Shown one piece after another: positions 18,345-19,387 of a stretch of 40,482 bases of DNA. Within the stretch, counting starts at the first letter, position 1. Every line of letters starts with the position of its first letter. The position numbers were made by a program, and so were the translations under genes. Source of the stretch: Escherichia phage vB_EcoP-22664UKE3-2; the sequence record MZ234011.1; one strand, written 5' to 3'. The notes below the pieces were generated by a model that worked only from the letters and a program-made list of their open reading frames with translations, searched no databases and was not told where the DNA came from.

Positions 18345-18380
18345 AACCCAGTGGTCTTAGGACTGCTGGGTTTCTTTGCT
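18345..18380 (+). terminator. Putative early transcription terminator (TE-like) after the ligase region
   Basis: Hairpin CCCAGTGGT...ACTGCTGGG followed by TTTCTTTGCTT; position matches T7 TE downstream of gene 1.3. Confidence 0.45.
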
Positions 18381-18399: not shown

Positions 18400-18422
18400 C
18401 CTAAGCTATCACTATAGGACAA
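18400..18422 (+). promoter_or_regulatory. Phage RNAP promoter (CTAAGCTATCACTATAGGACAA)
   Basis: Promoter core with one upstream substitution. Confidence 0.55.
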
Positions 18423-18448: not shown

Positions 18449-18703
18449 ATGTCTAAAAACTTAATGTTCAACCGATCTACTCGAAGCTTCCACCTGTCGC
18501 ATAGCCCATTCAGCTTCCATAAAGCTAATCAACCATTACCCCGCTTTGGTAAGACAGTGGCTCTGTCTCCAGCAGTTCATGCGCTAGTCACCCGCAAGTC
18601 TATGCTGAAGGCTATGGATAAAGAACAAGTTGATGTGCCTGTGGTCATTACAAAATGGCCTCGCATTAAGCTGGCACTTCTGGTAATTAAGGAGGCGCTC
18701 TGA
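18449..18703 (+). CDS. gp1.6-like protein (84 aa)
   Basis: RBS AAGGAGA upstream; C-terminal LSPAVHALVTRKSMLKAMDKEQVDVPVVITKWPRIKLALLVIKEAL resembles a T7 gene 1.5/1.6-region protein as I recall it. Confidence 0.5.
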   Translation: MSKNLMFNRSTRSFHLSHSPFSFHKANQPLPRFGKTVALSPAVHALVTRKSMLKAMDKEQVDVPVVITKWPRIKLALLVIKEAL

Positions 18704-19035
18704 TGACATACTGTGATAGCACCACATACTGTGAAGCGTGTAATGGTGACGACCGCTTCCCGCACGTTGGTAAACTTGTAGGTAACAAACTACAAGAAAT
18801 TGATGACGTCCGCAAGCCGTCCCACTATCAGGTCTTTGATAGCGTGGAATCCATTGAGATTATCGCACGGTCAATGACTGTGAGTGAGTTCCGTGGGTTC
18901 TGCATGGGTAACGTCCTGAAGTATCGACTCCGGGCTGGTAAGAAGTCCGAACTGGCTACTATGGAGAAGGACCTGAACAAAGCATCCTTCTATCAGAAGC
19001 TGTTCGACTTGCATAAAGGTAAGTGCTATGCTTAA
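18703..19035 (+). CDS. gp1.7-like protein (nucleotide kinase family), short 110-aa form
   Basis: KPSHYQVFDSVESIEIIARSMTVSEFRGFCMGNVLKYRLRAGKKSELATMEKDLNKASFYQKLFDLHKGKCYA matches the C-terminus of T7 gp1.7 as I recall it; N-terminal CEACNGDDRFPH also matches. Confidence 0.75.
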   Translation: MTYCDSTTYCEACNGDDRFPHVGKLVGNKLQEIDDVRKPSHYQVFDSVESIEIIARSMTVSEFRGFCMGNVLKYRLRAGKKSELATMEKDLNKASFYQKLFDLHKGKCYA

Positions 19036-19115
19036 TGATATTGTGTATTACTGTGTAGTATGCGCCGGAGTTGGAGCACTAATCCTTTTAATATATTGGG
19101 CCATAGAGGTGTAAT

Positions 19116-19214
19116 ATGGAAAAGCCGAGTGAGTGGTGCGAGCGTAAATTTGAGGAGACAGGTAACGTCGATTACCTTCAGCTCTACAACTTATGGAAGG
19201 AGCGTGGTCTATGA
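19116..19214 (+). CDS. Small ORF (32 aa) at the gene 1.8 position
   Basis: Stop overlaps the gp2 start; [32 protein letters not shown]. Confidence 0.3.
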
Positions 19215-19369: not shown

Positions 19370-19387
19370 ACTATCACTGTAGGACAG
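19365..19387 (+). promoter_or_regulatory. Variant phage promoter (CTAAACTATCACTGTAGGACAG) upstream of gene 2.5
   Basis: Promoter core with A to G at -3; may be weaker. Confidence 0.4.

Follow-up and report, generated by a model that had tools for sequence, protein, structure and literature searches.

A short gene 1.7 homologue with a DUF3310 core in Escherichia phage vB_EcoP-22664UKE3-2

According to PMC7693777, which cites Tran 2012, gp1.7 of phage T7 needs no divalent cation to convert dTMP to dTDP and dGMP to dGDP. Among the T7 gp1.7-like proteins, it is the only one known to have been characterised as a kinase. In the laboratory, T7 can do without gene 1.7 (PMC9712115). Other proteins of the DUF3310 family, such as lactococcal SaV and mycobacteriophage gp47 and gp54, are toxic or defence-triggering and have no demonstrated kinase activity. 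SaV in particular is known as a toxic early protein tied to sensitivity to the abortive-infection system AbiV, and not as a kinase (PMC8306868).

The window analysed here is the whole 40,482-nucleotide stretch of the genome of Escherichia phage vB_EcoP-22664UKE3-2 (record MZ234011.1). It contains a homologue of gene 1.7 that a preliminary description had taken for a shortened gp1.7, with the middle of the protein missing and the nucleotide-kinase activity possibly changed or abolished. The preferred reading, held at a probability of about 0.8, is that this 110-aa open reading frame (ORF), with one of the several domain architectures that gp1.7 has in nature, is a functional orthologue of T7 gene 1.7.

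The gene 1.7 homologue and its surroundings

The gene 1.7 homologue occupies 18703..19035 on the plus strand and encodes 110 aa followed by a stop codon. The product is a DUF3310 "nucleotide kinase" of the short architecture, module A plus core. Module A (aa 1-37; 18703..18813, plus strand) contains the motif C4-x5-C10-x2-C13-x3-DDRFPH21 and then a linker. The DUF3310 core (aa 38-110; 18814..19032, plus strand) consists of a P-x-HY motif, a short beta element, and three helices. The ribosome-binding site AGGAGG (18690-18695, plus strand) lies seven bases 5' of the ATG at 18703-18705. The syntenic upstream neighbour is an 84-aa gene 1.6 homologue (18449..18703, plus strand), as identified from the ORF list, the annotation of MZ234022, and a comparison of gp1.6 across loci. 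Its TGA stop (18701-18703) overlaps the ATG of gene 1.7 by one base, and the identical junction is found in T7. This overlap would be compatible with translational coupling.

The order of genes, namely ligase, gp1.6, the 110-aa ORF, a 32-aa gp1.8-like ORF, gp2, gp2.5, and endonuclease I, matches the synteny of T7, and the gp2 RNA-polymerase inhibitor downstream of the 1.8-like ORF matches Pfam PF16857. A phage RNA-polymerase promoter core, TCACTATAGGACA, is located at 18409..18421 on the plus strand and would drive the 1.6-1.7-1.8-2 unit; according to the motif count, the window has 12 copies of this core, compared with an expected 0.7. After the ligase/1.4 region, the terminator scan found a terminator-like hairpin with a 12-bp stem and a T-rich tail (18345-18372, plus strand). 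The neighbouring ORFs and the promoter following the terminator-like hairpin thus place the gene 1.7 homologue, like its T7 counterpart, in a class II unit for DNA metabolism. Gene 2.5 is preceded by another promoter core (19374-19386), which has one mismatch, and the succession of hairpin, promoter core, and promoter core before 2.5 parallels TE, phi1.5, and phi2.5 of T3 and T7.

Six deposited Escherichia phages, all in the genus Kayfunavirus and MZ234022 among them, match the 1.2 kb that surrounds the ORF at 100% identity, and further Kayfunavirus records hold copies of this region with ~99-100% identity. The coding sequence QZI79778.1 of MZ234022 is a 100% identical protein and is annotated as "nucleotide kinase Gp1.7". 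About 91 nt (window 19033-19123) separate the gp1.7 stop from the gp1.8-like ORF. This stretch gave no match in an Rfam search, and its predicted RNA fold is unremarkable (z -1.1). Many relatives do not have it; their gp1.7 is 1-2 aa longer and is followed by sequence aligning from window position 19124. Two of the related loci, L014 and L016, do possess the stretch.

Comparison with T7 gp1.7 and integrity of the core

T7 gp1.7 is 196 aa long, so the length given in the preliminary description is correct, and both that figure and the 110 aa of the ORF are borne out. The two proteins have in common the DUF3310 core, the N-terminal CxxC..DDR[YF]PH motif, and the place between genes 1.6 and 1.8/2. 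Pairwise alignment does not show full-length colinearity. In BLASTP, window residues 16-110 align with T7 residues 96-196 at 58% identity (E 3e-41), and the last 73 residues are identical to T7 124-196 at 52 of 73 positions (71%). At the other end, window residues 6-32 align with T7 17-44 over C-x-A-C-x3-DDR-[YF]-PH at 39% identity with an E-value of 0.003. Strong similarity had been claimed for both ends; it holds for the C-terminal region, whereas the N-terminal motif is weak in the pairwise comparison.

The weak N-terminal match is supported by intermediates. In P0019 and P0021, both of 112 aa, a T7-type "MGCIAC(L/F)E(K/N)DDRYPHTC" is joined straight onto the core. The gp1.7 of L020 (IMGVR_UViG_2706795180_000001; P0015; Escherichia phage P694), which is 162-169 aa long depending on the start codon called, has tandem N-terminal motifs: a window-type "CDSTTYCEACNGDDRYPH", then a complete T7-type N-terminus, "MGLLDGAAWEKENPPVRA(A/T)GCIACLENDDRYPHTC", and then the core.

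As had been proposed, the middle of the T7 protein is absent; in BLASTP, T7 residues ~34-115 have no counterpart in the 110-aa protein. Counted against T7, the absent residues are ~11 at the N-terminus, ~68 between the two D-x-R-x-PH motifs (28-33 and 96-101), and ~6 in the linker. Of the two proteins, only that of T7 has module B, a helix followed by C-x4-C-x4-C-x2-C, together with its linker, and the ~11 extra N-terminal residues. The T7 middle module was not found by tblastn in the rest of the window, and a gene 1.7 split into parts was ruled out on this basis.

A further start lies inside the T7 gene, at M42, and is served by a Shine-Dalgarno sequence of its own; the window has no counterpart to it. 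Codon 42 of the T7 gene is an ATG with AAGGAG 7 nt upstream (L002:1336-1341), and the calculated mass of the product from M42 is 17,711 Da. The homologues P0023 and P0030, both of 157 aa, begin precisely at the residues of T7 M42, "MTEREQE". T7 reportedly makes a full-length and an N-terminally shortened gp1.7 with equal kinase activity, and the shortened form is said still to include module B. The C-terminal half of T7 gp1.7 reportedly suffices for sensitivity to dideoxythymidine (ddT). The M42 start with its Shine-Dalgarno sequence and the starts of P0023 and P0030 appear compatible with such a two-form gp1.7. The mass of the T7 short form, which we take to be 17,782 Da, fits the 17,711 Da from M42 inexactly, so the details of that form are uncertain.

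The core of the window protein has the features of the whole family. Pfam DUF3310 (PF11753) matches aa 36-98 with an E-value of 4.2e-21; its score of 75.2 bits exceeds the gathering cut-off of 24, and the alignment spans positions 1-59 of the 60-position model. It is the sole Pfam domain recognised in the 110-aa protein. PHROG 2585, "nucleotide kinase", matches with an E-value of 3e-48, limited to profile positions 89-172 of 175, and an NCBIfam search of the 110-aa protein matched no model. The residues P39, H41, Y42, G65, N70, K73, Y74, R77, K81, and K93, invariant across the family in two alignments of diverse members (30 and 104 sequences), are all kept.

A HMMER search of 1.84 billion cluster representatives yielded 2550 clusters (50% identity) at E<=1e-3. 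Among the best 150 of these, the match nearly always runs from about query residue 30 to 105-110 and usually lies near the C-terminus of the target, and target lengths range from 82 to 341 aa, with 27 of 145 at 115 aa or less. A profile search of a 5.8-billion-protein collection found 3794 members, many of which are stand-alone cores of 75-101 aa, and some of these are already labelled nucleotide kinase; this search replaced one seeded with the protein of Bacillus phage BeachBum, which had returned 10 proteins. The BeachBum protein is itself a core-only DUF3310 protein of 76 aa. It and the SaV protein of Lactococcus phages have the signature P-x-HY ... N-x2-KY-x2-R ... K in common with the window protein, but such stand-alone or SaV-like proteins have no N-terminal module or a different one, and their identity is 25-40%. 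As judged from these alignments, the shared and conserved unit of the family is the C-terminal DUF3310 core of ~75 aa, which is complete in the window protein.

Structure prediction gives a similar division of the protein. In the AlphaFold2 model from a 104-sequence alignment, the block-mean pLDDT is 87-98 for residues 51-110 and 94-98 in four of the six 10-residue blocks. In the modelled core, a short beta element (43-49) is followed by three helices (50-56, 60-79, and 84-107). Residues 1-39 have low confidence (pLDDT 47-57) and are unpacked against the core. An earlier run with a shallow alignment of close relatives only gave a pLDDT of 55 and was superseded by the deeper alignment. The DUF3310 core is thus predicted to fold as an autonomous domain. 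Foldseek against BFVD returned exclusively DUF3310, nucleotide-kinase, and SaV-like proteins of 86-339 aa, and Foldseek against the PDB returned no match at E<=0.001. The PDB sequence search gave only cytohesin PH domains, which were rejected as chance matches (E >= 0.14); a solved relative of the 110-aa protein was found by neither the PDB sequence search nor the fold search.

The N-terminal cassette

The N-terminal region was classified in a census of the 120 nearest protein clusters at 90% identity, in all of which the last 75 residues are near-invariant. Module A alone, the window type (CxxC..DDR[YF]PH), occurs in 20 clusters with lengths of 110-115 aa and one tandem-A form of 162 aa. Module B alone, a helix with C-x3-5-C-x3-5-C-x2-CP that equals T7 residues ~42-100, is the arrangement of 37 clusters (139-157 aa, one of 181). 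Module C alone (KHKEWC...CDCG) accounts for 25 clusters, of 105-118 aa apart from two of 144 and 146 aa, and the beta-rich module D alone ("KVGDxVxY...GKV...VKWP") for 19 clusters, of 144-148 aa apart from one of 171 aa. Module E alone (HYCxxC...CxC) is seen in four clusters of 104-109 aa. The A+B arrangement of T7 is found in four clusters (178-180 aa) and B+C in one (174 aa), and the remaining ten clusters (105-150 aa) have other arrangements.

Since the T7-type A+B architecture is present in just four of the 120 nearest clusters, the middle module is not family-defining. The type phages also differ from each other. T3 gp1.7 (163 aa) and K1F gp1.7 (148 aa) have the DUF3310 core and the synteny in common with the window, but T3 has an unrelated, beta-rich N-terminal module of type D and K1F has module B only. 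The architecture counts and the differing type phages T7, T3, and K1F make the T7 long form the exception and not the standard. The 196-aa gp1.7 of T7 would accordingly be an atypical architecture of the longest type, and the ~75-aa DUF3310 core the real family unit.

The exchange of the N-terminal region is also visible in the DNA. In blastn comparisons with 27 related loci, a mosaic cassette at 18526..18800 (plus strand) comprises the 3' two-thirds of gene 1.6 and the N-terminal module of gene 1.7. For the majority of Kayfunavirus relatives, DNA identity to the window is 85-94% between ~18801-18808 (codon ~34, "DDVRKPSHY") and the stop codon. On the 5' side, the alignment with them reaches only as far as ~18525, and the interval 18526-18800 is replaced, with flanks that align at 75-94%. 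On the evidence of the alignments and the census, the N-terminal part of gp1.7 is a swappable, lineage-variable cassette ahead of a conserved core. There are two sequence types of gp1.6, which are not strictly linked to the type of gp1.7 module; in L014, the gp1.6 type of the window is paired with a C-type gp1.7. Module A of the window protein has three Cys and one His (C4, C10, C13, and H21), which may form a metal (zinc) site.

The turnover of the cassette bears on two related proposals, both of which are considered unlikely. The first is that the core is active and the N-terminal cassette tunes its behaviour, such as oligomerisation, partner binding, metal or redox sensing, or visibility to Avs5 or AbiV-like sensors, so that the A-only form would be functionally different from the T7 protein and not disabled. 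A recombination hot spot lies in the N-terminal region, where near-identical cores are preceded by at least five module types unrelated to one another and the DNA junction, at codon ~34, is sharp. Several of the modules are Cys/His-rich, one resembles an SH3/KOW-type beta module, and module A is strongly conserved itself (dN/dS 0.085). In addition, EfAvs5 is activated by T7 gp1.7 (PMC11897194), and phage sensitivity to AbiV involves SaV, a DUF3310 protein (PMC8306868), which makes the N-terminal turnover at least suggestive. On the other hand, any functional role of the modules would be conjectural, AlphaFold2 leaves module A unpacked on the core, and T7-like phages commonly shuffle cassettes among adjacent early genes, which may bring no adaptive benefit.

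The second and narrower proposal names a driver of the turnover. Exchange of the N-terminal cassette would be driven by host immune sensors of gp1.7 or SaV-type proteins (Avs5, AbiV-like systems), or else by different host partners, and the A-only form of the window would be an evasion or targeting variant instead of the product of neutral mosaicism. On this view, which is speculative and improbable, the cassette is deliberately exchangeable, and five or more unrelated modules recombine at a fixed point shortly before P-x-HY. Cassette shuffling would be relevant if Avs5-type sensing of gp1.7 depends on the N-terminal region.

Conservation, function, and related loci

The preferred reading of a functional orthologue draws on the conservation of the short form. 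The combination of the window N-terminal module and core is carried by 32 deposited genomes of phages of Escherichia, Salmonella, Citrobacter, and Shigella, with module identities of 70-100%, and the same architecture of A plus core is found at 48% identity in the distant 43.5-kb contig L027. In the comparison with the locus L004, where synonymous divergence is close to saturation (dS 1.26-1.46), the N-terminal module has a dN/dS of 0.085 and the core one of 0.19, and both are therefore under purifying selection. From these comparisons, the short architecture is that of a common, old, and functional gene. The proteins annotated as nucleotide kinase in Kayfunavirus and related phages, including Vec13 (111 aa), LM33_P1, and Salmonella phage BP12A (114 aa), have the same A plus core at 69-100% full-length identity. 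They show no architectural difference from the window protein and represent the same variant, already deposited and annotated. The 110-aa protein is thus an ordinary, naturally short, and already annotated gp1.7 variant that was already known, and the significance for the window, where it is an ordinary annotated Kayfunavirus gene, is low.

The same data weigh on the idea of a decaying remnant, in which the middle of a T7-like gp1.7 was deleted and the product is inactive or being lost. The T7 D-x-R-x-PH motifs flank the missing segment, which formally resembles a deletion between short repeats. Damaged copies occur in relatives, with a frameshifted core in the K1F reference and an internally deleted N-terminal module and frameshifted C-terminus in L008, and gp1.7 is non-essential in T7 under laboratory conditions, as cited above. 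However, the ORF of the window is intact and has a good ribosome-binding site, both of its parts are under purifying selection, and the A-plus-core form is kept in the 32 genomes and in L027. Every invariant core residue is present, and the A+B form is the minority. Because of the selection, the conservation, and the integrity of the core, the decaying remnant is essentially excluded; the pseudogene reading was rejected on the dN/dS values and the conservation in 32 genomes.

Least probable of all is that the protein acts early in the manner of SaV, to shut off or divert a host function, and is not primarily a nucleotide kinase, its "kinase" label having been carried over from T7: the DUF3310 proteins of lactococcal phages and mycobacteriophages are toxic when expressed and the core has no recognisable nucleotide-binding fold, but the gene has the same DNA-metabolism operon position as T7 gene 1.7, and the 71% identity of the core to T7 gp1.7, the one family member with demonstrated kinase activity, makes a purely SaV-like role unlikely.

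With the ORF read as a functional gene 1.7 orthologue, the 110-aa protein probably has the kinase activity of T7 gp1.7. By homology to T7 gp1.7, it would make the diphosphates from dTMP and dGMP and would need no divalent cation. Its likely role would be to supply dNDP and dNTP precursors for phage replication from the dNMPs of host DNA breakdown. The presumed catalytic unit is the DUF3310 core, which would be small, all-helical, and without a P-loop, preceded by an exchangeable N-terminal cassette that here would consist of the short Cys/His module A only, with module B absent. The catalytic determinants are most likely in the DUF3310 core because it is the only part common to all members, and module A is presumably dispensable for catalysis.

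The suggestion that the kinase activity is altered or abolished is consequently unsupported. The missing segment is a lineage-variable module, the core is complete, the short form is conserved under purifying selection, and even shorter, core-only homologues exist. The natural 110-aa protein, or the core-only proteins of 76-100 aa, would be handy minimal constructs for the structure and mechanism of a P-loop-less, metal-independent kinase.

A few related loci show rearrangements of their own. K1F: The reference gp1.7 (L028:985-1431; NC_007456 7484-7930) leaves the family frame in the core after "RLRAGKK" and has an unrelated end, and a separate 75-aa ORF follows. This is either a frameshift or sequencing error of the reference or a genuinely disrupted gene.

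L008 (IMGVR_UViG_2974604219_000001; ~966-1322 and ~1516-2260): The gene has a T7-type N-terminal motif with an internal deletion that joins "MGCIACLEK" to "PEVTPTDDQP", and a frameshifted C-terminus. The core region of the window matches two separate places in this locus, a sign that gene 1.7 may have been duplicated or rearranged locally.

L021 and L027: An ORF of 140-165 aa is located directly upstream of gp1.7 instead of gp1.6 (L021:1031-1453 and L027:974-1471). With its motif "DHDH..G..RG.L...CN", the product looks like a putative HNH endonuclease, and some phage records likewise list "nucleotide kinase" together with "HNH endonuclease".
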